DNA of 64,000 bases, taken from Lingula anatina. Its lineage: Eukaryota; Animalia; Brachiopoda. The notes below the pieces were generated by a model that was not told the DNA's origin, made no database searches, and saw only the letters and a program-made list of their open reading frames with translations. The stretch is taken from contig CM120648.1 of assembly GCA_051362555.1 (NCBI GenBank), positions 11,032,587 to 11,096,586 on the forward strand. The letters run 5' to 3'. The translations under genes were made by a program, and so were the position numbers. Below are positions 2,238 through 59,167 of the stretch, piece after piece. How positions within the stretch are numbered: the stretch's first letter is position 1; every line of letters begins with the position of its first letter.

Positions 2238-3515
2238 AAAAAAAAATATGAGAACAAAATATACATTCTAACAAGATATGCAGTTTCAAGTTCAAAATCA
2301 GTACTTAGTGGCATAACCACGTGACCTAATAATAGCTACCAGTCTACAAGGCAAGGGTTCATATAATTGTCTGATGCGTTCAGGGCTTATGTTGGCCCAA
2401 GCATGAAACACTTAATCAAACAGAGTTCGTCTGCTGGTTGATCGGGCATTTGTAAAAAGTTTTGACATATCATTCCACACATTTTCTATTATGTTTGCAT
2501 CCGAACTCTGTGCAGGCCACATCATCCTGCTAATGTCCTGTTGGTCAAAACAATCATCAACTGCTCTGGGCCTGTGACAAGGAGCATTGCCATCCTGGTG
2601 AACAAATGGATAATTCCTGTCACCAAACATGTTAATAATAGATGGTAGCAAGTCTGACTCCAAATCATCGATATATTTCTGATGATTTACGTTTCCATCA
2701 ACCACTACCAATCCACCAACGCCATGGATGCTTATGCAGCCCCACACCATGATGAATATGCTGCTCTGGGTTCGAAAATTCAGTGCATGTGGTTCAAATA
2801 CTTTACCAGCAGTTCGCCTGCATCGTACACGCCTGTCATCAGAGGTCAGACCAAAGCGACACTCGTCAGAAAATACTATATAGGACCAATTGTCATGGAC
2901 TGTCAAGTTCCAGATCCTGTTGGCCCTAGTTCACTCTACATTGCCTGTTTTGTAACGAAATAAGAGGTTTCAGTCTTGCTACCCTGCTGTACATTCTCTG
3001 CTCATGTAACCGACGCCTAGCAATTTTCACAGACACATTCTTATGTGTGAAATTTTTCCACTGTGTTGTCAACTGACAAGCAGTGTCGAACCCTGATAAC
3101 CTGGACATCAAAATCAGTCATCGGTCTTGACGGTCAGTAGTTTTTCTTGGACGACCCATCAGAGGCAATGTGTCTCTTGATCCAGTGTTTCTATACCGAG
3201 ACCAGACCCTCTGCACGGTTCTGACTTAACAATTCAACTGTATCGATATTCTGACATTGCTTATATTCCGTCTCTTCAGGTTAATAACTTGACGTCTATA
3301 ATCGTTAGATGATTGCCTGTATCTTGCCATATTGGAGGAAGACAGGATTAACATTTGCTGTAGGCCTACATGTACAAGACCAACAATAAAATTCCATGGT
3401 ATAGCGGTTTTATACTCATTAGTCACATTACAAGTAGACCAGGCATTATAACTACCCACGATCTGCCTAATTTGATTACTATGATTTAGGGGTGACACTT
3501 CTATTGTCCAGTGTG
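2093..3515 (-). mobile_element. Tc1/mariner DNA transposon with TIRs and a decayed transposase
   Basis: TIR cacactggacaataaaagtgtcacccct (2093-2120) inverts at 3488-3515 with one mismatch. Minus-strand fragments give an HTH region, FSDECRF, MVWGCIS, QDGNAPCH and WPAQSSDANIIENVW, broken by stops and frameshifts. Confidence 0.92.
2198..2232. repeat. (CA)n microsatellite inside the Tc1 element
   Basis: Direct dinucleotide run. Confidence 0.95.
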
Positions 3516-3713: not shown

Positions 3714-3928
3714 CAGTGGCAGATATAGGGTCCTGACTCCCCCTTCGACTTCTGAATAAATCATACCAATGGTCCCCTCTTGAAAGTAGAATTTTGACTA
3801 GTTGAATCATAGTTCGCCCTCTAAAATACCAAATTTTTTCGGGGGCCTTCAGCAGGCCCAGAACCCCACGTCAAGGAGACCGGCTTTACTCTTTACTTTA
3901 CCTTTAAATAATACTGGATCCGCCCCTG
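3714..3928 (-). mobile_element. Non-autonomous hAT-like MITE (CAGTGGC...GCCCCTG family)
   Basis: Ends cagtggc / ggatccgcccctg. Its internal sequence matches, in reverse complement, the copies at 17136-17315 and 29779-29982. Truncated copies recur in each tandem unit (~4850-5050, ~5995-6210). Confidence 0.75.
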
Positions 3929-4026
3929 CTAGGTACTCTAATTTTCTCTGAAATTATTATTCTGTACAACCACCCTCTAGTTAAGAATTTATTGGGAAGA
4001 AATAATAGGTGTCAAAAGATTTTTCT

Positions 4027-4212
4027 AAAAAGGTTTTCGCCTCCTCGCTACCATAGCGAGCCACATATCAACCCAAGCCATTTGCTGTGTTCCACCCAAG
4101 GCACCACTGTTGCTGGCACCCAGGCTAGGACCCAATGACTCACGTCCCTTCACTCAGCTATGGCAGTAGCTGAGTGAGTTGGCGAAGTCCTGGCCAGGGT
4201 CAAGACCGGCTC
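4027..4212 (-). ncRNA. Putative Pol III (type 3 promoter) structured ncRNA, copy 1, ~186 nt, family unknown
   Basis: On the minus strand, TTTATATAT (4245-4237) lies 23-24 nt upstream of AGAGCC (4213/4212), and a T5 run follows at 4031-4027. The GC-rich body folds into an 11-bp perfect hairpin, a GU-rich 12-bp hairpin and a long 5'/3' helix. Confidence 0.6.
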
Positions 4213-4236
4213 TGGTTAAAGTACTTGGAGTCTCCC

Positions 4237-4279
4237 ATATATAAAGGGATTCGAGTTCCAGTAATTACCTGCGTGGTAG
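4237..4279 (-). promoter_or_regulatory. U6-like TATA box plus candidate PSE for ncRNA copy 1 (repeated in each unit)
   Basis: TTTATATAT as in the U6 TATA box. CTACCACGCAGGTAATTAC sits at about -67 to -49, the position of the PSE in U6-type promoters. PSE identity is inferred from position only. Confidence 0.5.
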
Positions 4280-5183
4280 CTACAATCTACATGAAGGTTT
4301 TTCCTATCTAGCCAATATAAATTCTGTACAATAGGCCAAAGGAATTTGGTTCGTTCAAGTGTTTGAAACGCGTTTTTAAATCTTTTATCTTTATTCTAAA
4401 TAAATGATATTTGATTTTCTTTTAATGTTATAATAGATAATAAGTAATATGAAGAAACGTTACCTAATTTGGAAGAGCAGATAGGTTATTACCCTGTAAA
4501 CGAAACTCAAGGGGTTTCTCAATAACTAATAGCATTTACTATTGTTGCCAAATGTTTGATTTAGATATCATTCTATTTTTAGATATCGCACACTTGCCAG
4601 GTAAGCTCTATTGCTGAATATTCGATAAAAGGATTGTGGCCACTGAATTTGATAAAATGCTGGGATATTGATCAGTAAATTTTATTAAAGTTTTATAAAA
4701 ATGGGAAAATAAAAACTTTCTCATTCAGTCGCAGGTATCAATCTAAAAGCGGTCAATTCCCGGCGTTCAATTCGCAAAAGGAATGTTAAATGTTTGAAAC
4801 GGACCATGGTATTGTATTCTCTTTTGATGAAGAACCCCTCCCCCCCTCCCCCCACTCCCTTGATTTCTGAAAAACACACCAAATGTCCCTTCTTGAAATT
4901 AGAATTTTGACCAGCTGAATCATAGTAATAAACCGTACCATATGGAAGCGTTCGCCTTCTAAAATACCAAAATCTCTATGGTGCCTTCAGCGCCAAGGGG
5001 GTAACCTTTTCGTTTGCGCCCTCCTTTAAATAATCCTGGACCCTTATCTGCTAGGTACTCTGATTTTCTCTTAAATTGTTAATCGGTACAGCCACCCTCT
5101 AGTTGAAGAATTCACAAAAAAAAAAAAAATTAATGAATAAAAATTAATAGAAAGAAAAAAATAATAGGAGACAAAAAATTTTT

Positions 5184-5371
5184 AAAAAGAGGTTTTCGCC
5201 CCCTCGCTACCATAGCGAGCCACATATCAACCCAAGCCATTTGCTGTGTTCCACCCAAGGCACCACTGTTGCTGGCACCCAGGCTAGGACCCAATGACTC
5301 ACGTCCCTTCACTCAGCTATGGCAGTAGCTGAGTGAGTTGGCGAAGTCCTGGCCAGGGTCAAGACCGGCTC
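5184..5371 (-). ncRNA. Putative Pol III structured ncRNA, copy 2
   Basis: Near-identical to copy 1: one A>G change in the 3' linker and a CU inserted before the T5 run at 5188-5184. TATA at 5404-5396. Confidence 0.6.
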
Positions 5372-6310
5372 TGGTTAAAGTACTTGGAGTCTCCCATATA
5401 TAAAGGGATTCGAGTTCCAGTAATTACCTGCGTGGTAGCTACAATCTACATGAAGGTTTTTCCTATCTAGCCAATATAAATTCTGCACAATAGGCCAAAG
5501 GAATTTGGTTCGTTCAAGTGTTTGAAACGCGTTTTTAAATCTTTTATCTTTATTCTAAATAAATGATATTTGATTTTCTTTTAATGTTATAATAGATAAT
5601 AAGTAATATGAAGAAACGTTACCTAATTTGGAAGAGCAGATAGGTTATTCCCCTGTAAACGAAACTCAAGGGGTTTCTCAATAACTGATAGCATTTATTA
5701 TTGTTGCCAAATGTTTGATTTAGATATCATTCTATTTTTAGATATCGCATACTTGTCAGGTAAGCTCTGTTGCAGAATATGCGATAAAAGGATTGTGGCC
5801 ACTGAATTTGATAAAATGCTGGGATATTGATCAGTAAATTTTATTAAAGTTTATAAAAATGGGAAAATAAAAACTTTCTCATTCAGTCGCAGGTATCAAT
5901 CTTAAAGCGGTCAATTTCCGGCGTTAAATTAGCAAAAGGAATGTTTAATGTTTGAAACGGACCATGGTATTGTATTCTCTTTTGATGAAGAACCCCCCCC
6001 CCCCCCGACCCCCACTCCCTTGATTTCTGAAAAACACACCAAAGGTCCCCTCTTGAAATTAGAATTTTGACCAGCTGAATCATAGTAATAAACCGTACCA
6101 TATGGAAGCGTTCGCCTTCTAAAATACCAAAATCTTTATGGGTGCCTTCAGCGCCAAGGGGGTAGCCTTAACGTCTGCGCCCTCCTTTAAATAATCCTGG
6201 ATCCTCCCCTGCTAGGTACTCTGATTTTCTCTGAAACTATTAATCGGTACAGCCACCCTCTAGTTGGAGGATTCATGGGAGAAAAAATAATAAGAGACAA
6301 AAGATTTTTT

Positions 6311-6498
6311 AAAAAGAGGTTTTCACCTCCTCGCTACCATAGCGAGCCACATATCAACCCAAGCCATTTGCTGTGTTCCACCCAAGGCACCACTGTTGCT
6401 GGCACCCAGGCTAGGACCCAATGACTCACGTCCCTTCACTCAGCTATGGCAGTAGCTAAGTGAGTTGGCGAAGTCCTGGCCAGGGTCGAGATCGGCTC
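6311..6498 (-). ncRNA. Putative Pol III structured ncRNA, copy 3
   Basis: Four substitutions relative to copy 1, each swapping a Watson-Crick pair for G.U or back on the minus strand. TATA at 6531-6523 and T5 at 6315-6311. Confidence 0.6.
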
Positions 6499-7238
6499 TG
6501 GTTTTAGTAGTTGGAGTCTCCCATATATAAAGGGTTTCGAGTTCGAGTAATTGCCTGCGTGGTAGCTGCAATCTACATAAAGGTTTTTCCTCTCTAACCA
6601 ATATAAATTCTGTACAATAGGCCAAAGGAAATTGGTTCGTTCAAGTGTTTGAAACGAGTTTATAAATTTTTTATCTTTATTTTAAATAAATAATGTTATA
6701 TTTTCTTTAAAAGTTATAATAGATAATAAGTAATGTGAAAAAAGATTACCTAATTTGGAAGAGCAGATAGGTTATTACCCTGTTATCGAAACTGAGGGGG
6801 TTTCCCAATAACTGATAGCATTTATTGTTGATGTTGATGTCAAATGTTTGATTTCGATATCATTGTATTTTTAGATATCACATACTTGTCAGGAAACCTC
6901 TATTGCAGAATATGCGCTAAAAGGATTGTGGCCACTGAAATTGATAAAATGCTGGGATATTGATCTGTACCTAAATTGGTTAATTATTTCAGTGACAGCA
7001 TTCAATTTTATTCAAATTGGGAAAATAGAAACTTTTCCATTTACAATAAATCCAAATGTGATCCCCCTGAAACTATAAATAAATGCATATATAATCATTC
7101 ATCGTGCTGTTATATGTATGTAAAGATCTTCATTTTTTATTAACGTATGTCATTGTTGTAATATGTAATAGTTCTTTCCTGAAAAATGTGCTGAAATCAA
7201 TAAACTTTTTATTATAACATATACACCATATTTTATAG

Positions 7239-8109
7239 GACCTCGATCGACTGGACAATGTGGACCTGACAGTTGCCTATGATTCATCATTTAAGATGAC
7301 CACAGCTGGCATAGGGGTGGACATTTACGTGGTGAATACCAGCTTAAATAAAGATCACGAAGATTTTGGAGTGCGTGTGTCTTATGGATATTCCATTTCC
7401 TCTACGGCGGCCGATGATCACGGTCATGGATCCCACGTGGCCGGAATATTGGGTGGGGCAAAATACGGGGTGCCCAAAGACGCCAATATAATTGCGTTGA
7501 AATTAATTGATAAAGACGGCACTGGAACAGTTTCTGACTTTCTCAACGGGATACAGTGGATCCAAGATCAAATTAGAATAACAAAACGGAAATCTGTGGT
7601 TAATGTTTCTCTCCATTGGCCGAGCTCTCTGAATCTGCTAATTCTGCCGTCGAAGGCCTGGTAAAAGACGGTATTGTCGCCGTCGCTGCCGCTGGGAACA
7701 ATACAGGGGACACCTGTCAGTATTCGCCAGGCAGTGAACCGTTGGCAATATGCGTAGGGGCAACAGACTGGCTAGACAATGTAGTATCCAGTTCCAACAG
7801 TGGTTCTTTTGTGGAAATTTACGCTCCGGGGTTGCAACTAAAGAATGACTGGTATACCAATCACACATCAACTACAGTATGGTTCAAAGTGGAACTTCGT
7901 CTGCAACAGCGTTTGTTGCAGGGGCAGCGGCTGTGTATCTCTCTGCCCTACCAGACGAAGTCGTGCCTTCAAAAAACCTAGTGACTGAAGTCGAATCTTT
8001 TCTGTATTCAACAGCAGCCGCTGTTATGCATTTCGACTTCATAATCGCCACCTTGGCATCAGAATTCGTCAATAAAGTGGACAAAGCAGACAAGAACGGA
8101 AACTGGTGA
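7239..8109 (+). pseudogene. Subtilisin-like S8A serine protease (proteinase K/aqualysin-like), disrupted
   Basis: Starts after the acceptor ttttatag with DLDRLD. Motifs: VDIYVVNTS (catalytic D-T-G changed to N-T-S), HGHGSHVAG, VVNVSL, AAAGN, SPGSEP, IYAPG and SGTSSAT. Split over three frames (7260-7664, 7616-7981, 7879-8109). Confidence 0.85.
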
Positions 8110-10298: not shown

Positions 10299-11390
10299 TT
10301 ACCGTATTTTCCCGTAAAAATCCGCCCCCTCCCAACCGTTTTCTATCACCCAGGCTAACCCCTTTATTATCATTTCACCTTTGCTTAAAGCCCCGTCGCT
10401 GTTGGTATCTATTTCAGTAAAAAGAGCCGAGGAAAATGGGACGCGGAATATCTTCAGAAAATTGGCATGCTCTGTGTTGTTCAGATAGTCATTCCCATCT
10501 GCATCCACCAGATTAAAAAACTTGAGCAGCCATTCGACTTCCAAGCCTAGGTCTTGCATATCAACCGTTTTCACTCTGGTTATAGCCTCGGTTGAAATGA
10601 AGTCATCTACTGAAATGCTTTCTAGGTTTTCGTCATTCATGAAGCGTTTCCACCACATTTCCCAACATTCCTGCAAGAACGCTTTGATTTTCTTTTCTTT
10701 CTCGGCGGAATTCGTTATCACTCTTACTCTTGCTGCCGTCATGTTTACGAATTCGTTTCCATCCATTTTTCCGTCACCGTTTACGTCAAAATGCCCCATG
10801 AATGCTGCATATTTCATTGCCCAAATATCAAGTGACGGATTCCCATCGTTAGAAAGCTAAAATGAGAAAAAACAATGTGTCACAATTACATGCACTTGTC
10901 ATGATAATTTATTTGGTAAAATTTAACGGTAGGTTTAACAACTGGATTCACATCCTAGGAATAAATCAAAACAAATAAGATTTTCCGCTTGTGTACAAAC
11001 ACAAATTTCGTACCTTCTTTGGTCTGTTATCATTATAAAATCTATCAAATTTTAAGACGGCTTTCATGACACTGACATAACCATGTATCTTACAGCATTA
11101 ACATCATGTGATATACAGTGTATGTACACGCATTCAAACGGGACGTCTTTTTATGTCACAATAAAAATAAAATTTGTGATGATCTATACCTTTTCGCCCC
11201 GTATAGCTAGAGTGGAAACATCATGTGATATACAGTGTGTGTACACGCATTCAAACGGGACGTCTTTTTATGTCACAATAAAAATAACATTTGTGATGAT
11301 CTATACCTTTTCGCCCCGTATAGTTAGAGTGGAAACACTATCAGTCATCATCGTGGCAGAAAAACATATTGCCAATAGACTGAAGAGCAT
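10299..11390 (-). CDS. Secreted EF-hand Ca2+-binding protein (SCP/calexcitin/aequorin-fold), copy 1
   Basis: Exon 11390-11307 (MLFSLLAICFSATMMTDSVSTLTIRGEK, then donor gtatag) splices in phase 0 to exon 10856-10299 (acceptor ttttag). EF loops DVNGDGKMDGNE, DADGNDYLNNTE and DTNSDGALSKGE. A likely 5' UTR exon ends near 14631 (donor gtaaat). Confidence 0.85.
11101..11337. repeat. 117-bp tandem duplication spanning the signal-exon splice donor
   Basis: acatcatgtgatatacagtg...gtggaa repeats at 11101 and 11218. Confidence 0.9.
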
Positions 11391-16301: not shown

Positions 16302-17423
16302 TTATAAGATTTTACCGTATAAATCTACGCCCTTCAAATTGCTACCTTTCACCCAGGAGAAATGATTTGTAATCATTTCAATTTTGCTTAAAGTACCGTT
16401 ACTGTCGGTATCTATTTCAGAGAAAATATTCGAATTAAATGGAGCACGGAAAATCTTGAGAAAATGGGCATACTCTGTCTTGTTCAGAGAGTCATTTTCA
16501 TCTGCATCTACCACTCGAAAGAACGTAACAATCCACTTGAATTCAATAGCCCTGTGATCATTATCTTCCAATTTCTCTCTTGTGTCACTCTCGGTTGAGA
16601 TGAAGTCTTCTGCTGAAATGCTGTCTAAACTTTTGTCGTTCATTAAACCCTCCCACCACTTGACCCACACCTCCTGCAAGAACGCTTTGATTCTGTCCTC
16701 CTTCTCAGCTGACTTTGTTATTGCTCCTACTCTCGCTGCCGTCATATTTACGAATTCGTTTTCATCCATCTTGCCATCACCGTTTACGTCCATACGTTCA
16801 ATGTGTCCTCTCCATTTGTCTGCCCATATGTCACGTGGCCTATTGACATCACTAGAGACCTAAACGAGAAGAAAATAAATATAATATTTTTTTAATCAGG
16901 TAGCTGCTTATCATATGGTTGCAATTGGTTCACCCTATCAAATAACATATTTAACAAGACTATAAACATCAACCATCTTTTGCATTGCGTAAAGACTTAT
17001 TCCATTCTAATATATTATATTTTTATTATCGTTTGAAATAACTTTCACGACAGTTCACGTAACACAGATGTTAACATGTCTTATGACAGAAAAGGTTTGT
17101 CATAAATGCGACGCATTTTTTTACATGCCATAATGCGGGGCGGATCCAGGACCATTTGAAGGGGGGTCCAAAACACCTCGGATGCGAAGCCGACCATCGC
17201 CCCCTTGGCGTGGGTTCGGGGTCTGCTCATGGACCCCGAAAATGTTTTGGTGTTTTGGAGGGCAAACGGTGATTTTTGGCACGGTTTGGAACTATGATTC
17301 AGCTAGTCAAAATTAAATGTTACGCTGTATACCTTATTATCCCGTATAACAAGTGTGGAACCACTGTCACTCATTAGCATGGGACCAGGCAGCTAATGCG
17401 GTTGTCAATAGACTGAAGAACAT
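16302..17423 (-). CDS. EF-hand Ca2+-binding protein, copy 2 (signal-peptide exon frameshifted)
   Basis: Main exon 16859-16302 is intact (acceptor ctcgtttag; DVNGDGKMDENE, DADENDSLNKTE, DTDSNGTLSKIE). The first coding exon 17423-17333 is 91 nt and stops after 18 codons. The ATG at 17380 is in frame with the main exon. Confidence 0.8.
17136..17315 (+). mobile_element. Partial hAT-like MITE (GGGGCGGATCCAGGA family) in the EF-hand copy 2 intron
   Basis: Similar to 29779-29982. Confidence 0.65.
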
Positions 17424-29600: not shown

Positions 29601-31074
29601 CAACATTTTTTCATTTTTTTATGTGATGAAATTTCAACGTTGAATCTTATTTTCCAAATCAAACATGAATTGGATGTCAAGGCTACGTTAACTCAACCAT
29701 TGTGTGGTTCCTAGACATTCAGTACTGGGGATATTATGTGACCGTGGCGTTATAACTTATACACTTTAATCGGTTTAACAGGGGCGGATCCAGGATTATT
29801 TGAAGGGGAGGTCCGCGGGGTTTGGGGCCCGCTGAAGGGCCCCAAAATTTTTGAAAATTTAGAGGGCGAACGGTGCCATTTGGTACGGTTTAGAACTATG
29901 TTTCAGCTAGTCAAAATTTTAATTTCTAGAGGGGACCAGAACTCGAAGAGGGGCCCGGAAGGACCCCCTAAACCAGCCACTGGGTTTAAGGGGTGTGTTT
30001 CGTTGTAATGCGATATATTTTCTCTCGGGATTTGTGTAAGATAATATACACTGTCACCATTTAGCGATATATGCCTCCATTACCTTTCTCACTGACGCTC
30101 GAGGTGTTCTGGCCTAGATCGCTCGGAGTTAATGTGTCACAGACCCAGTGTCACACGTACGGATACTGATAACAAAGTACTCACATTTCATCGAAAAAAA
30201 AACCCTAAAGGCGTACAAAGCGTATATCGCCACAGTCACATGACACCTGTAGATATGTAACATACGTATGTACATGCATTTCCACATGCCCCCCAGGCTG
30301 TCCAGCGGCAAGTATACACCACTTGGAGCTGTGAAGGGAAACCGTAACGAATGGCTTCGGGCTCAGTTCTCGCTCGACTTCCTGTTCAGTCCCATGACAT
30401 TTCGGGTAAGGCTTTTAAGTCTAGAGAGATGTCTTAAGCTTTGAATTTGCTATTTGAGCATGTATATAATTATGCCTTGCTGTTTATCTTGTGTTTTTGT
30501 GATGAAATACTTGCAATATTGGGCGACAGTCTTATTTGGCAGTTGGCTCCTTATAATGAATCTTCTGAAAATGGCGTCTTTATAGAGAGTCACATGTACG
30601 TAACAGCCAATTAAAAGATTTTGATGCCATTATTATCCTTGGCAATAAAACGCGTAGCCCACCAAATGCAATTATATTACAACAATATTTGTTTTTATTA
30701 GTTTTTAATTAGCTCTTTATGCTCAATCTAAAATTTTCAATTACCGGTACGATGTTGTTCCAACAGCTTCCCGAGGAGAGCAATATTATCCTTTTAAGTA
30801 TTACGATATTATATGCTACCGTAAGGATAATTTGCCATGGCGGGTGACACATCTAAGTTACTAAATAAGACCGATCTTTTATGCTTATATATACTTTTAA
30901 TGTCAAACACACTTCTTCCACAGCCTATACATGTACATCAACAACAATAGTTTTGACGAACTACATTGTACTCTTTCCTGATTTCAGTTTTATGTAGAAA
31001 CAACGACCGGTGTGCTATACCCCTATAATGTAGCTGTGGATAATTTGGAGGTCCGAGAAGGAGCCTGCAAGTAA
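26649..31074 (+). CDS. Secreted protein: C8-like cysteine domain, Thr/Pro linker and MAM domain, 7 exons, ~332 aa
   Basis: Exons 26649-26715, 26953-27091, 27506-27747, 28444-28608, 29029-29218, 30297-30405 and 30988-31074, all GT-AG, 999 nt in frame. Signal peptide MSRLWRLAVLGLVFVVL. C8-like ACKILEKMANEC...WRVETGC. MAM: CDFD...CGWSQ...TGPYGD...ARLLSP...CLSFHYHMY...VAVDNLEVREGAC. Confidence 0.9.
29779..29982 (+). mobile_element. Complete hAT-like MITE in an intron of the MAM gene
   Basis: Ends caggggcgg / cagccactg, flanked on both sides by the direct repeat ggtttaa (target-site duplication). Confidence 0.8.
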
Positions 31075-44400: not shown

Positions 44401-47400
44401 TTGCCAATTTCTTCATTTTCAGCTATTTCCAAAATATTAATGAGCTGTTAGCTTCATTTTTGCACACGGGATCAATTAGGGTGTTTAGCTATTTCTAATA
44501 AAGTCCGAAAATATTGAAGCCAAGTGTCTGCTCATATGCTGTTTGCTATGTGTGAAAGAAATAGTGGACAGAGTGGACGTTGTTGATTGTATGGATCCTC
44601 GTGAAGGTTTTTACTGGGGTAGGACAAATGCAGTCAAGCGTTTTTTTTTTCAAGCAGATCAGAGACAAAAACACGTCACATTGATGTGTGTAGTCTCTAC
44701 CCCTACGTAAATAAGTAAAAACCGTATCCACTCCGTCATCCCACCAAAACTTTGGTGCATGGAGTGAATACGATGGTTTGGTAAAATGTACCGTTCTTCC
44801 TCCCCGGCGTATTTATCATCTTTATCATCCTACAGACCACAAGGGAAAGTAACGTACCCTCTTTGTCGCAAATGCGCTGATACACTGCAGCATACACAAT
44901 GTCCGCATATAGTGACGATTCACGTTGTTTGACAGGCACGTGAGTTACTGCTGAAATAAAGAAAGCCGTTTCGAAAGATTAAAAATTCCATGACATTTGG
45001 CACAATGATCGTGTGAGTGAGTACAAACCGATTACAAATACAAATACAAATACGATTACAATTAATGTCTATTCTCTGGCTATATCAATACCTTACTCAG
45101 GCCCGTAGCCAGGGGGGGTTCGGGGGGTTCGAAAGAACCCCCCTTTTTGCTGGGAAAAGGTCCCCTCTAGGTAAAATTTTATCTAGGTACAAGAAGGTTT
45201 CATGGTAAAAGGTCCACTTTTTCAGATTCACGTTGTTTGACAGGCACGTGAGTTACTGCTGAAATAAAGAAAGCCGTTTCGAAAGATTAAAAATTCCATG
45301 ACATTTGGCACAATGATCGTGTGAGTGAGTACAAACCGATTACAAATACAAATACAAATACGATTACAATTAATGTCTATTCTCTGGCTATATCAATACC
45401 TTACTCAGGCCCGTAGCCAGGGGGGTTCGGGGGGTTCGAAAGAACCCCCCTTTTTGCTGGGAAAAGGTCCCCTCTAGGTAAAATTTTATCTAGGTACAAG
45501 AAGGTTTCATGGTAAAAGGTCCACTTTTTCAGAAAAAGAACCCCCCTTTTGAAATTGCTAGCTACGGGCCTGTTACTCAAGCTCAAAAAAAAAAAAAAGG
45601 CCAACGTCTACCCCCCAGATTGCACGACACCACAGCTGAAAAGGCACTACATTGGTTCCTACTTTACCAAAGAGGTCATCCGACTAGACCAAGACCAAAT
45701 TAAGAAGAAGCCAGGTCTTAGAGCTTTATCAAAACTGATACTAAACAGTTTTTGGGATACGTATAAACAGGTAGCATTATTTTACTATATGTACTTATTC
45801 TGCGCTTCACGCAAATATATTAACATTTGTATTTATCATTCAACGCAAATGATAGTCATAATATCGTGCTTATAACGTAGGAATTCGGTGTGTTACCGTG
45901 TTTTTCTCAGTGTATAATTCGCACCAGCAAATTAAAACATCAGTGATTCGTGCATTTTCACTGTTTTCACTAATATGGTAATGTTATTTCTTTGACTATT
46001 TTAGGCAAATTCGGCCATAGAACAAATATGACACGGTCCGAATACGTCACCGAGGTGGACCAGTACTTTGCGCTCCTGCTGAACAAATCCCTGGATGTCA
46101 CCAACGTAATGTTCTTGAACGACGACAAGGTAGAAATGCACTACAAAAAACAGTCAGAGTTAGTAGAGTGCGCTGAGAAAACCAATTTTGTCATCGCCAC
46201 ATACACCACTGCCCACGCCAGCATGGTTCTCTACGACCATTGAGGTACTGGAGCGGAAAGTCCTCCTTCACCACCGATTCCATCATATTCCTCGATGATG
46301 GCAGTGCACAAACTAGTGCGTGCCTGGACAGCATCATGGACAGCTACTTCGGCGACTTCACCGATGAACTATATGAGGGGGGCCACAACACCACGTTTGT
46401 TTCGGGCGGCTCAAAGAACTATACGTACATACGTTACGGCAAAGAGAAAGACAATACGTAAAGTGACAGGTTTATCATTGAATTATGAAATCTCTCAGAT
46501 GGTTATTTATGACACTTTGTATAACATGGTGCGAAAGAGGTGTCAGTTACACACAACAAAATTGCCAGAATCACTTTAGCTAAAGACATCATCTCTAGAA
46601 GAGAAGATACAGTTTATCGTGTTGTGTCATTCAGAAAGACTCATTTGATGCGTTACCATACTGTTATTGACTTTTTGAATACTGATCATCATTATTATCT
46701 AACAGTTAAATTTGTGTTTAATAGATGCATACTTTTTTATATAAATTGTCCTGTAATTTTTAACGTATATATAATGCCTACTGAATCACTATAATCATTT
46801 TGGGCTGCCACGTTGTACTTTTGTGTATAATAAAACATGTTTTGTTTACAATACATTTGTCTGTGCCACTTTTTTCAGTGCTCTAATATCACGTCCATTC
46901 CTGTCCAGTGACGTCATACCGTTGTCATGACTCCTTCTTGACATCTTTTTTATTCAAACTTTATAGCATAAAAGTTTGAATTTTACCTGTTTGGGCATGC
47001 TTTTCCACTACGTCATATCGTTTTCATGGTAAAACGTAAACAAAAATATAGTCTTCTTTGTTTACCCATTTTTTCACCCAACAAAAGACTTGTTTTTTGT
47101 AAACATCCTCCATTGAGTTTTTCTTTGTCAAAATGATGTAATATAACAAAAGAAAAAAAAACCTACATATACTCTCAACTGTATCCCCAATGTTACTTCT
47201 GGAGATTGATGCTTTCTTCCACATTGGACAGATTTAATCATTAACGTACATATATAATGTGTGTTTGAGTGAGTGCGGTCCCTCCATGTGATGGTTGCAT
47301 GACATCGCTCCTCTTTACACTTCCCAATAAATCATATCCAATTCATCTTACAGTACTTCAACTGGACAGATGGGGGAGCTTTTGTATACAATGAATGGTA

Positions 47401-50400
47401 CGGCCCAAAAATTTATGGATTCAATTCATATAAGATTCCTTCCACACTGACAACAATTGTCACGGAAGATGTTCTACAGCCGGTCCGAGGCGACGAGCGC
47501 GACTGTGTCATTATGATGACCTTTCTACAATTTCCCACTCAAGGGAAAACACGCTGGGGGAACTGGGCCAAAGTCCCATGTCATCAACCAATCTGCTGTA
47601 TGGCTGCAATCTGTAAAAAACCTGCAGTTCCGGCATCAAATAAGAATTCAACTACAGCCGCTTCCAAATCATTGCTGGTAAATTCCACAGCATCCCAGTG
47701 GTATACGCACCATGAAACCTACTGTCCAGAGGGTTGGGTGTATATAGCAGGACGTTGCGTGCTTCTACACACCCTTGCCAAGATTGTAGCCGAACTAAGA
47801 GTTGGACACGAAACTACGTATGTGTCCCTTTACTCCCCACTATATTGGTCCTTACCGCCAGGCACCAACCTCACCAATAGCGCAGCTGTGGAGGCATGTA
47901 GGTCCCTGGGTGGAGATTTAGCCCCCTTTAACAGCACTTTACACAAGGACCGAGATATTCTTCAATACATCAGTATTTGGGGCAAAGAACTCACTTGGAT
48001 ATCTCCAACAAGTTTGGAAATACATACATCACGACCACTCTCAAATATCTTAGCTGTGTGGGTGAAGTCCCCAAAGAACATATGCAGAAGACTTAAGTAT
48101 GCTAACCATCTGTTCATAGATGACATGGAAGGACTATGCCAAGACGTTGACCGCCGTGAGTCGCTCTTGGCTCTTTGTGAGATTGCTTCGAAAAGCAACA
48201 TTTTAAACTGTTCACAGCACCAATTTAGATGTCAAGATGGCAGTTGTATCTCTACTGTTAATGTGTGTGATGGGACCTGGGAGTGCGCTGAAGGAGAAGA
48301 TGAGAAGAATTGTACATGTGGACAACACACTTTCACTTGTTCCGATGGCTCATGTATCCCAATTAGTAAAGTATGTAATCATATCAACGACTGTCCAAAT
48401 ACAACAGATGAGAATTTTTGTGTCTATCCGCCGTGTAAAGCAGGGCAGTACAGATGCCAGAATGGGGAATGTATCGACGAGAAAGACAAGTGCAACTTCT
48501 TTAAAGACTGTTCAGATGGATCTGACGAAATTCCCCAAATTTTGTGCCCATGTAAGAAGTGTTACTCTGGCAGATGCGTAGCTCCTCAAAACATGGACGA
48601 TCGCCACCCAGATTGCTTTGGGGTGTCACAAGAGGATGAGTCACTTTCAATGATTCCAGTAATTAAGCGCAGGTCCTTAAATTGCCGATATAGTGTTTGG
48701 GCATTATCTTTCTCTCTGCCTTATTGTTCGAACACTAATGAAATGAGATGCGCACCCGAACATGTCCGGTGTATTGATCGACAACTGGCATGCGTTCACG
48801 ACAAAATCAAGCACGAACGATTCCAAACATGCAGTGGGTTTGAACATTTAGAAAACTGCGCCAGCTTTCAGTGTCCACACATGTACAAGTGTCCTGGCTC
48901 GTATTGTGTCCCACTTCGACAGGTGTGTGACGGGGAGAAAGACTGTCCACGAGGAGAGGACGAAGCTGGTTGTGCTAATTACACATGTCCCAGTGGTTTC
49001 AGGTGTAAAGGAGAACGACAGTGTCTGCACCAGAGCGAGGTATGCAACGGTGTGGTCAACTGCAAATTTTCTGATGACGACGAAAGGTTCTGTGACATAA
49101 AGACATGCCCCATGAACTGTGTCTGTAGTGGGTATTATGTAGACTGCATGGGAGGAAATGCATCCAAGGTACCGAATATATCACCATTCACCAGAGTCCT
49201 TGCTTTTGGGGACAACAAACTTCATTTAACAAACGAAACGTTTGCAAGGTATCAATTCCTTGTGAAACTGAATGTCAGCTCAAACGAAATCAGAACTATT
49301 CCTATTATGACATTCATCCATTTAAATAACCTGTTAGAGTTGGACCTACGGGGTAACAAATTGCCCTCTTTGCAAGCAAATTCCTTCAATGGTTTGTTTA
49401 ATTTGAAAACCTTGTTGCTAAGTGGAAACCCATTAACTAAAATATCCCCAGGCACATTTGATGGTGTTTCAAACCTAAGTGCTTTAGACCTTAGTATGCT
49501 TCATATCAAGACCATTCATGCACATACATTTAAAGGCTTAGACTCGTTAAAAAATCTGAATATAAGTTTCAACAAAATGTCCACGATAAAGGATGGTGCT
49601 TTTCATGGTTTGTCCAAATTTGATACGGTTGACATGTCTGAGAATGAGGGAATCTTTGTCGAAACTGAAGTTTTCGTAAATTTTTCAGCTAAAACATTAA
49701 TAACAGACAGGTTTGGAATCTGTTGTCTCGCTGTAGGGAAAGTAAACGAATGTTTACCTAAACCTGACGAATTTTCCTCATGCTCTGATCTGCTGTACGA
49801 TAAGTTCTTACAAGTTTCTGTCTGGATTATGGGAATTCTTAGTTTGGTTGGGAACCTTTTTGTTTTTGTGAACAGAATATGTGAAAACAAAATGACCACT
49901 CAAATCTTTTTCATAGTTAACCTCTCAGTTTCTGATTTTCTTATGGGTGTATATTTGATCATAATCGCCACGGTTGACACTCTCTACCGTGGGGAGTATT
50001 TTGTTCATGCCGAGGTCTGGACAGATAGTGTGTTATGCAAGACTGCGGGGTTTCTTACCATGCTTTCAACATTGATGTCCATGCTGATATTAATTTTGAT
50101 TACAACAGACAGAATAATAGCCATTGTGTTCTGTATGTCGTTTCGAAAAATTGGAATGAAAAGAGCGTCTGTTTTAGTGACAGTTGGGTGGGTATTTTGC
50201 TTTATCGCAAGTATTATTCCTTGTGTCGAAAATGGATATTTTGAAAAATTTTATGGTCATAATTCTGTATGTTTACCCTTTACTATAAGCAGAGTATACT
50301 TTGGTGGTCGTGAGTACGCGTACGCCATGTTTTTATTTACCACTCTTTTTGCTTTTGTCTACGTGGCAGGGGGATATATATGGCTAATAAAAAGCGTCTT

Positions 50401-50731
50401 TGAGACTCAACAGCAATCTGGACGTGAGGGTTTTGATGAAGTTACTCTTCTGAAAAAAGTGTCTGTTATTTTACTGACAGATTTTGTATGCTGGGGGCCG
50501 GTGGTATTGTTAGGGTTTCTAAGTATGGCCAACGTGCCAATTGCACCACAAGTGTCGAGCTGGGTAGCCGTGTTCGTGATGCCGTTGAACTCCGCTATCA
50601 ACCCCTATTTGTACACGCTTGCCAACGTTAAGCTATGTGGTAAGAAAGAAGAACCATCAACACACTACACTTCTGTAACTAGACATAATAAACAAAAACA
50701 AGTACATGCAGACAAAGAAACCGAGTTATGA
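41435..50731 (+). CDS. GRL101-like (type C) LRR-containing GPCR with CUB, CUB-like, two CTLD, ~7 LDLa, LRR and 7TM domains; 2 exons, ~1490 aa
   Basis: Exon 41435-42529 (donor CAG|gcaagt) joins exon 47354-50731 (acceptor catcttacag) in phase 0, restoring the CTLD sequence IYIGLKSTDQ|YFNWTDG. LDLa repeats with DE endings, LRRs, hinge DEFSSCSDLL, NLSVSDFLMGVYL, TDFVCWGP and NSAINPYLY. Confidence 0.92.
42790..44530 (-). mobile_element. Degraded non-LTR retrotransposon (LINE) reverse transcriptase
   Basis: Minus-strand fragments ICPIYKKGD, FIDFSKAFDYVDH, QGCMLSPFMF, LFADD and YLG, followed by the typical C-terminal LCYGALIWG...GRLP...IKYW. Confidence 0.85.
44917..45532. repeat. 308-bp tandem duplication including part of a MITE
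   Basis: gattcacgttgtttgacagg starts at both 44917 and 45225. Confidence 0.9.
45406..45572. mobile_element. MITE with CAGGCCCGTAGC TIRs and a TTACT TSD
   Basis: Same family as 32659-32826, in the opposite orientation. Confidence 0.85.
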
Positions 50732-58389: not shown

Positions 58390-59167
58390 ACCATACCAAC
58401 GTACGTGTCAACAGGATTGTTTGTGTATCTGGACTTCCTAAATGACCAGTAAGTATTTTGTATAATATGACATGTTTATGTCACTGAAAATGAAGGCCAT
58501 AATATGTCGCGACAAGCCATTACTATGTGTTGAAGAAATACGACGAAGGGTTTGCTATTGCCGATAAGACACGCAGTGGACGTCCTTCAAAAGTTGACCT
58601 GCGCCACATGAACGTTATAGATGAGGAGATGACCAAGAATGATGAATCGGTGGCCTCAGAACTAAAATCACGTCTCTTTGAGCGAACAGGTAATTTTATT
58701 GAGCAACATGGTATTAATTGGTTTCGCACCCCTCCAGAAAGCCCCGAGCTTAACCCTATTGAAAACGTATGGGCTATAATCAAACATCACCTGCGTACGC
58801 GTGTTAAGCCTACCACGAGAGAACAACTTGTTGAAGGTATTAGAGAGGCATGGGGAAAAGTTTTAATATTTTAAAACGCAGAAAAGTGTAATAAATATAT
58901 TAATCACCGAAAGAAGGTGATTCCAGCGGTAATTGAGAGAGAAGGTCGTTCATCAGGCTACTAAACTAGCAACACATGTAATAAAGATAATGAGACATTG
59001 GTATTTATTTGATGCATTAGCTATTTAAAATTTTCCATTTTAACTACGCTTGTGTTGATCGTGACTTATTACCATCAAGTGAACCTCAAATAAAATTGTT
59101 ATACGTGTTTTAAAACTAAGCATGATTTGTTCTTCAGAGTTTTGTTTTCATATTCGACCTGCCTTTA
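58390..59167 (+). mobile_element. Internally deleted Tc1/IS630-family transposon
   Basis: ORF 58527-58874 fuses an N-terminal RSGRPSK region directly to TPPESPELNPIENVWAIIKHHLR. The tail VIPAVIEREGRSSGY* follows in another frame. Boundaries are approximate. Confidence 0.8.

Follow-up and report, generated by a model that had tools for sequence, protein, structure and literature searches.

In a 64,000-nt window of the Lingula anatina genome (the whole stretch of DNA analysed here), three tandem copies of a minus-strand element of about 187 nt specify members of a folded RNA family whose sequencing reads contain a fixed internal joint: family reads match through A4049 and then pass into heterogeneous sequence, which divides the RNA into a 165-nt 5′ body and a 22-nt 3′ piece (positions 4048–4049, minus strand, placed from loose read ends). 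The elements are a real, expressed RNA family, very probably of RNA polymerase III (Pol III) type. For the joint, our preferred account is that family RNAs would be cut 22 nt before their 3′ end and then joined, by RtcB-type ligation, to pieces of many poly(A) RNAs; we give this account slightly less than an even chance. That the covalent joint is made in the cell at all seems quite likely to us and, given an in-cell joint, cutting and ligation is favoured over splicing.

Tandem RNA genes and their transcript

The array comprises three units of 1.13–1.16 kb at approximately 3758–7041, delimited by repeat families D1–D3, D7, D8, D13 and D17 and by alignment A1, with mutual alignment of the units over ~1.1 kb. 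As the initial annotation had read from the letters, each unit carries one GC-rich minus-strand element (55–57% GC against 37% for the window), described there as a tandem triplet of ~186 nt and measured here at 187–189 nt with start-to-start spacings of 1159 and 1127. Copy 1 occupies 4027–4213 (187 nt from A4213, 186 from G4212), an extent based on read cover and fold, its exact ends being predicted from TATA spacing and the terminal run of five T (T5). Copy 2 lies at 5184–5372 (99.4% identity to copy 1 over 4033–4213) and copy 3 at 6311–6499, both on the minus strand, with joint-equivalent positions after 5208 and 6335, respectively. Copy 3 is 97.8% identical to copy 1 in the RNA and 90.4% in the promoter, indicating that the element is more conserved than its flanks.

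The minus-strand promoter layout proposed earlier recurs in every copy. TTTATATA begins 32 nt upstream of A4213 and of its equivalents, corresponding to an identical TATA box at −32 to −25 (4238–4245, 5397–5404 and 6524–6531). Farther upstream, a conserved 20-nt block at about −67 to −48 (4261–4280, 5420–5439 and 6547–6566) matches once per unit, three times in the window against none in 100 shuffles, giving promoter spans of 5397–5439 and 6524–6566 for copies 2 and 3. A reversed CCAAT box at −103 (4312–4316, minus strand) is present in all three copies and may contribute to promoter function. At the opposite end, the T5 runs (4027–4031, 5184–5188 and 6311–6315), also noticed before, are candidate terminators; at copy 1, RNA depth is 0 in the bin 4005–4035 and beyond. 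TATA near −30, an upstream block and a T-run define the type 3 Pol III layout (PMC7279448). The TATA at −32 and the T5 are common to all three copies, and the transcript is short and untailed, with no reads beyond T5. The elements thereby resemble the genes of U6, 7SK, Y, RNase P/MRP and tRNA-Sec, whose block stands near −50 to −60, but match no family model or hallmark motif of these. We regard them, on sequence grounds, as probable type 3 Pol III-type genes and the upstream block as a candidate proximal sequence element (PSE); the Rfam scan found U6 nowhere in the 64-kb window, and the literature search found no lophotrochozoan PSE. Directly 5′ of the TATA box, all three copies also carry a stretch (4246–4259, minus strand) that, by eye, we take to resemble a tRNA B box; there are no reads and no tRNA there.

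RNA evidence comes from five of nine raw RNA runs, mapped on 3850–4750: X15, X16 and X17 from one study (P6), the oligo-dT run X18 and the poly(A) run X12. In all five, depth is confined to six bins spanning 4036–4221 and is 0 in the remaining 24 of 30 bins. First mates fall on the plus strand in X15, X16 and X17 (with depth 2 opposite in X15), which denotes minus-strand RNA by the mapping tool's stated convention. Many molecules end at 4198–4205 and begin at 4040–4041, inside the predicted ends at 4213 and 4027, and X12 holds two element reads among 12.4 million. Of 249 X15 reads, 97 are at least 99% like copy 1 and the copy 3 letter at the 4172-equivalent occurs in 31 of 195, some without any other difference; the window's own types are thus among those expressed. 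A discrete minus-strand transcript with the predicted bounds, which the initial annotation had proposed seeking, therefore exists. Its suggestion of an undescribed family amplified in tandem is strengthened by this transcript, by the lack of an Rfam family and by a literature search, with subscription papers largely outside its reach, that found no description of this RNA. Body depth relative to the single-copy depths of copy-specific contigs gives ~5–6 genomic copies, too few for a dispersed short interspersed element, miniature inverted-repeat transposable element or transposon interior, and these origins of the element are ruled out.

The fixed joint and its possible origins

Loose ends were placed at the last matching base of each read, a definition checked on an X1 loose end at 3901 against copy 3. 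In X17 they number 651, 102, 37 and 3 at 4049, 4048, 4047 and 4046, that is 793 of 804 partially matching reads (1218 mapped). X18 shows 224, 27 and 5 at 4049, 4048 and 4047 (256 of 270; 342 mapped), X16 38 and 8 at 4049 and 4048 (46 of 50; 165 mapped), and X15 four joint ends among six partially matching reads at a depth of 90 at 4047. A single donor-side site is seen in four runs from two studies, with many joint reads in three of them, and the falling series from 4049 to 4046 is what chance extension of the match from one site would give.

Beyond the joint, agreement among the loose parts is 0.33 in X17, 0.35 in X18 and 0.39 in X16, compared with simulated values of 0.51 for 5 partners, 0.39 for 20 and 0.34–0.35 for 50–100 (651 reads, base mix assumed). 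Counted through consensus agreement in this way, the partners, if evenly used, probably comprise at least ~50 different sequences. On the RNA strand the loose parts give an A-rich consensus, and the oligo-dT run X18 contains hardly anything but the joined form (depth 3 at 4047); both observations fit sense, tailed partners. Poly(A) or mixed tails as the partners themselves are ruled out by the agreement of 0.33 and by complex sequences in small groups, and joining to intron starts because no letters are conserved beyond the joint. Partners begin with G in 18% (X17), 12.5% (X18) and 17% (X16) of cases, with upper bounds of 19, 17 and 24%; the background is 18.5% in the window and 21.6% in coding sequence, and the share lies below 35% at P<1e-5 in X17 and X18. 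First-base G at background level is what blind ligation predicts. It argues against AG acceptor splicing at the partners, since exon starts are G-rich (~40–50%).

DNA evidence comes from three of ten DNA data sets carrying the stretch (X1, X2 and X10, from three studies). Unbranched contigs cross the joint site in X2 (4040–4169, 0 differences, depth 247) and X10 (4040–4180, depth 219), and none of the 18 DNA loose-end rows listed falls at 4049; the joint looks post-transcriptional. Across the P6 samples the joined share tracks haplotype: X15 is 4% joined and carries G4182A in 8 of 159 reads (5%), X17 is 98% joined with 379 of 410 (92%), and X16, with marker C4107G in 50 of 142 reads, is roughly half joined. 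This suggests that RNA sequence or locus matters and not the library alone. X1 and X2 also contain a diverged paralogue contig, with 18 differences over 4145–4303 and 80 nt missing upstream of the promoter (4303–4384), which may be the source of joined reads. In X18, of the same type as the X10 DNA, joined reads show three letters at 4150 and two at 4181, a mix indicating that several copies contribute. Joining thus belongs to the RNA family, and the joined share tracks a paralogue outside the window's three copies.

According to the proposed mechanism of cutting and ligation, Pol III driven by SNAPc/TBP would transcribe from A4213 to the T-run, and the 22-nt tail would alternate between forming hairpins of its own and docking on 4190–4173 as a helix that ends at the cut. 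A nuclease, or the RNA itself, would cut after A4049 and leave a 2′,3′-cyclic phosphate, chiefly in one cell type or in a paralogue whose pseudoknot strand is weakened; a tRNA-ligase complex would then join the cut end to 5′-OH 3′ fragments of mRNAs without sequence choice. Probably, broken mRNA ends would thereby be captured or turned over beneath a structured leader of 165 nt, either as the job of the RNA or as a decay by-product. Precedents exist, as RtcB joins cyclic-phosphate U6 to 5′-OH L1 and other RNAs, with 37 of 53 joints not genomic (PMC6789731; U6 ligation to other RNAs is also covered in PMC13247085), L1 is also reported in chimeras with tRNA halves, Y and 7SK (PMC11838501), and self-cleaved metazoan retrozyme RNA is ligated by RtcB in vitro (PMC7229834). 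The Lingula RNA shares with the U6/L1 and U6/cellular RtcB chimeras (PMC6789731) a constant Pol III-type 5′ part, one donor-side joint, many unselected partners and, within the DNA rows listed, joints absent from DNA. It differs in that U6 is joined at its natural trimmed U-tail, whereas the joint here lies inside the RNA, 22 nt short of its end, and can account for most reads reaching that point. U6/L1 alone amounts to 0.36 read pairs per million and all partners together here to as many as 94 reads per million, figures that are not like for like.

Several observations weigh against cutting and ligation, and some of them favour its rivals. Contigs drop rare variants, including rare somatic ones, the DNA loose-end check covers the rows listed, and an X1 contig stops at 4048, implying a branch at 4047 of some copy or allele. 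These points are compatible with a DNA-level origin, in which rare somatic insertions or rearrangements would place promoter and body before many flanks and Pol III would read in; such read-through to the first T-run would look A-rich too, and the body ends in TA. Such an origin is nevertheless highly improbable given the body depth of only ~5–6 copies, the unbranched contigs in X2 and X10 and the survival of the joined form through oligo-dT selection, and a convincing terminal inverted repeat ending at the site was not found.

A second group of such observations concerns the reads. The haplotype link is established per sample, not per read, and G4182A occurs in none of the three window copies; the partners are known from 30-letter consensus lines; and the strand call depends on the mapping tool's stated convention. 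A pile-up of free ends at 4049 is absent from the run listings. Joint reads amount to 0.08 per million in the poly(A) run X12 against 23 in X18. Such libraries under-count short unjoined RNA, and the true joined share may therefore be small. Motif checks and Rfam revealed no ribozyme motif in the RNA, and neither a cutting nuclease nor a diagnostic end chemistry was found. Fits to hepatitis delta virus-like, hairpin, hammerhead, group I and group II domain V ribozymes, judged by eye against their known motifs, failed.

All of the evidence also comes through cDNA libraries, and the joint could have been made in the tube, by reverse transcriptase jumping onto a processed 3′ end at 4049 or by a lysate ligase joining fragments during extraction. 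The >1000-fold level difference between two poly(A)-type runs would suit such an artefact, as would three X17 reads whose joint, at 4036, runs through 13 nt of look-alike sequence, a mark of template switching. However, neither the natural 3′ end nor the body shows loose ends, even in X15 with its predominantly intact RNA; the joint ends concentrate at one site, in two studies and in stranded and unstranded libraries alike; in the oligo-dT run there is hardly any free form for a jump; and the joined share moves from 4% to 98% within one study. We accordingly consider a tube artefact unlikely at 4049. The joint at 4036 is itself likely template switching; its partner, read in sense by eye, consists of Glu/Gly codons ending Tyr-stop and resembles an alpha-tubulin tail.

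The remaining observations that count against ligation concern the joint sequence. The joint falls exactly at G-C-G-A-G, fitting the splice-donor pattern GYRAG (~0.005 per site; two sites in 187 nt), and it sits on the 3′ side of a hairpin. Every one of the RNA's three AUGs is also in phase with it (chance about 1 in 27), standing 33, 18 and 6 nt upstream, and ligation predicts none of these features. The earlier statement that the islands hold no convincing open reading frame stands for long frames but overlooks this shared AUG frame. Spliceosomal trans-splicing would explain the single exact site (p ~0.005), with the 165-nt body as an unusually long spliced leader (SL) bearing a GC donor to many pre-mRNA acceptors and supplying in-frame AUGs. 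Tandem genes, a constant leader on many tailed RNAs, a joint in a hairpin and an AUG near the leader end are likewise features of SL RNAs in flatworms, nematodes, tunicates and hydrozoans, the donor hairpin and AUG recalling flatworms in particular (PMC12582326), and an Sm-like run lies 28 nt downstream of the joint in copy 2. The family reads show a constant leader on many different sequences, as counted via agreement, with a joint absent from the DNA rows listed.

Other features depart from that model. In all three copies 4049, an A at −1, is followed by G-C rather than by the GU that follows known leaders (PMC7986045; X1 may differ at 4047), and known leaders measure 16–46 nt (PMC7986045, PMC11155486) against 165 nt here. 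Within the expected 20–60 nt downstream, the Sm-like run matches in copy 2 only; it lies beyond T5 and hence outside the predicted transcript, is broken up in copies 1 and 3, shows DNA variation (4018) and has no read cover. TATA and T-run suggest that the RNA is an uncapped Pol III product, only 12–18% of partners start with G, joint reads reach at most 94 per million, a very low mRNA share, and the literature search found no report of SL trans-splicing in brachiopods. On balance we hold trans-splicing to be a minority possibility. In its workings the RNA resembles the U6 chimeras or a spliced leader, but it belongs to neither group.

The AUG frame (4081–4027, minus strand) runs for 11 codons to the joint and continues as Ala-Arg-Arg-Arg-Lys-Pro, stop-free in copy 1; in copy 3 (6367–6311, minus strand) a change at the 4039-equivalent creates an in-frame stop. 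Neither Pol II extension of a cut 3′ end nor a ribosome-stall cut, for which Arg/Lys/Pro codons follow the joint in frame, finds support here. A bolder and in our judgement improbable form of cutting and ligation would make this a trans-joining system new to animals, in which a Pol III RNA loses its final 22 nt, either autocatalytically or to a partner nuclease. Equally speculative is its continuation, in which the 165-nt pseudoknotted leader would bring three in-frame start codons to hundreds of mRNAs in one brachiopod cell type; so is the suggestion that messages left broken or uncapped would be re-capped or re-started by it, with no Sm-class spliced leader involved.

Fold, natural variants and known RNA families

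The minus strand folds at −80.1 kcal/mol (z −3.5, 0 of 200 shuffles as low); the plus strand also gives z −3.5, so folding alone does not indicate a strand. The predicted architecture (4058–4212, minus strand) is a long 5′/3′ helix, 4212–4191 with 4058–4080, closing a multiloop with hairpins 4177–4150, 4148–4127 and 4124–4095. Closing helices and two inner hairpins have pair probabilities of 0.93–0.98, and two small 3′ hairpins 0.91–0.92. The initial annotation's picture of a helix closing three hairpins is thus sound for the helices and two hairpins, but the middle one (4148–4127) has a probability near 0 in the plain fold and forms only when the strand 4190–4178 is kept free.

The pseudoknot or alternative fold proposed there, 4186–4181 with 4036–4041 (4036–4186, minus strand), gains from natural variation, in that the three variants in its six pairs all keep a wobble pair. 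It is opposed by a terminal hairpin that the proposal omitted, 4046–4040 with 4033–4027 (pair probability 0.91), which competes with it. The helix could be extended to 13 of 18 Watson–Crick pairs, 4190–4173 with 4032–4049, a register picked post hoc and reached by 10 of 2000 shuffles; so extended, it would terminate at the joint site.

We scored 23 variants, 18 from reads or contigs only and five from copies 2 and 3, against a hand model that includes the pseudoknot. Fourteen keep a pair, two break one and seven are unpaired, so that 14 of 16 at paired positions are kept (P = 1.5e-4 at fourfold transition bias, 0.018 if all changes are transitions); in the plain fold, ten keep, four break and nine are unpaired. 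All changes are one-sided and the hand model was built with some variants already known, and the result is therefore support rather than proof for the fold. Among the indexed runs the stretch was found in no other species (the second organism, X11, has a share of 0.00).

Consistent with the earlier failure to recognise family hallmarks, Rfam gave no match at gathering score in the 64 kb and only chance-level matches at E≤10 on three narrow stretches. No covariance model of RNase P/MRP, U6, U6atac, tRNA-Sec, SRP or vault RNA matched, and ARAGORN found no tRNA genes. The proposed pseudoknot partner lies outside the closing helix, unlike P4 of RNase P/MRP. Rfam can miss invertebrate MRP (PMC2655684), and detection of MRP and 7SK in invertebrates is difficult (PMC2770079, PMC2655684), so that a far-diverged housekeeping RNA keeps some probability.

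Such an RNA, a Y RNA or a 7SK-like client of LARP7 or Ro whose cut-and-ligated products are decay by-products, would be compatible with cutting and ligation. The type 3 layout is common to Y and 7SK (PMC7279448), most metazoa have Ro60, and few invertebrates have Y-like RNAs on record (PMC4726728). As in Y RNAs and sbRNAs, the genes are clustered, the ends are paired and a GUC..GA motif lies near the 5′ end; the first 20 nt of all copies hold a near-match (one insertion, one to two changes) to the Ro60 contact GGUCCGA (PMC4201824), found in 121 of 20000 shuffles and picked post hoc. The exact motif, described with a single bulged C and an opposite 3-nt bulge (PMC4201824, PMC4726728), is absent from all three copies, and the Y-like bulged register has probabilities of 0.05, 0.05 and 0.00 in the three, the favoured fold having no single bulged C. 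The GUG-CAC upper stem and UUAUC loop are likewise missing, and the 187 nt, with a 31-nt 3′ extension and a predicted pseudoknot, exceed the usual 80–130 nt. For 7SK, the closing 5′/3′ helix, 3′ hairpin and U tail recall its circular form (PMC10083321) in architecture only, with no sequence match; the paired GAUC of the 5′ stem described there is not found, GAUC counts being 0, 0 and 1. With no Rfam match besides, we rate a housekeeping identity as doubtful, somewhat more so than trans-splicing or a tube artefact.

The metazoan non-LTR retrozymes (PMC7229834) resemble the family in that tandem repeats give a structured RNA, with ends that RtcB can ligate after cleavage. The family differs in having no hammerhead core and no back-joined (circular) reads, in its ~5–6 copies, in its own promoter and terminator and in its 1.15-kb unit. 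For a hammerhead retrozyme the core motif is absent from the element, back-joints are absent from the read listings and Rfam gives no match. Telomerase RNA is marked by a template of 1.5 telomere repeats and, in animals, by box H/ACA; a brachiopod one has been placed among H/ACA-type RNAs (PMC8480181). The element contains no template of the telomere-repeat types TTAGGG or TTAGG. Outside this organism no homologue was found among the indexed runs, a metagenome scan and viral contigs, the last giving 0 matches in a motif scan; metagenome matches to a 19-nt motif, at five loci, were judged chance, all lying at 61–64% GC with the motif alone matching.

What is new is an uncatalogued folded RNA family of ~187 nt, shown to be expressed in Lingula; additions to the type 3 Pol III RNA families of animals are, to our knowledge, rare. 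If ligation is true, the joint would represent an abundant natural cut-and-ligate pathway, otherwise known only as a trace reaction of U6. If splicing is true, a brachiopod would for the first time show signs of leader trans-splicing, and its leader would be more than three times longer than the reported 16–46 nt. Either reading bears on the origin of spliced leaders and on the action of RtcB upon broken mRNA.

Neighbouring features of the window

The spacer of every unit contains a high-copy dispersed repeat (3881–3942, 5023–5043 and 6184–6204) that also occurs at 17142–17162 and 29786–29806. With five motif matches in the window and a summed contig depth of ~80–185× single copy, it is probably a small transposon. 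Downstream of the array, subtilase (Peptidase_S8) exons at 7239–7981 on the plus strand start after an acceptor-like AG near 7237, and the RNA-gene triplet may lie antisense within an intron of this subtilase gene. Fragments of a DDE_3 transposase are found at 2412–2930 (minus) and 58503–58874 (plus). The three best matches of a 315-aa protein encoded in the window are Lingula anatina proteins (81, 75 and 51% identity), which points to a lingulid brachiopod or a near relative. Two intronless EF-hand paralogues of 185 aa occupy 10299–10856 and 16302–16859 on the minus strand, 6003 nt apart and 74% alike in DNA, and a 1142-aa open frame at 47303–50731 on the plus strand combines LDL-receptor A repeats, leucine-rich repeats and a 7tm_1 domain.

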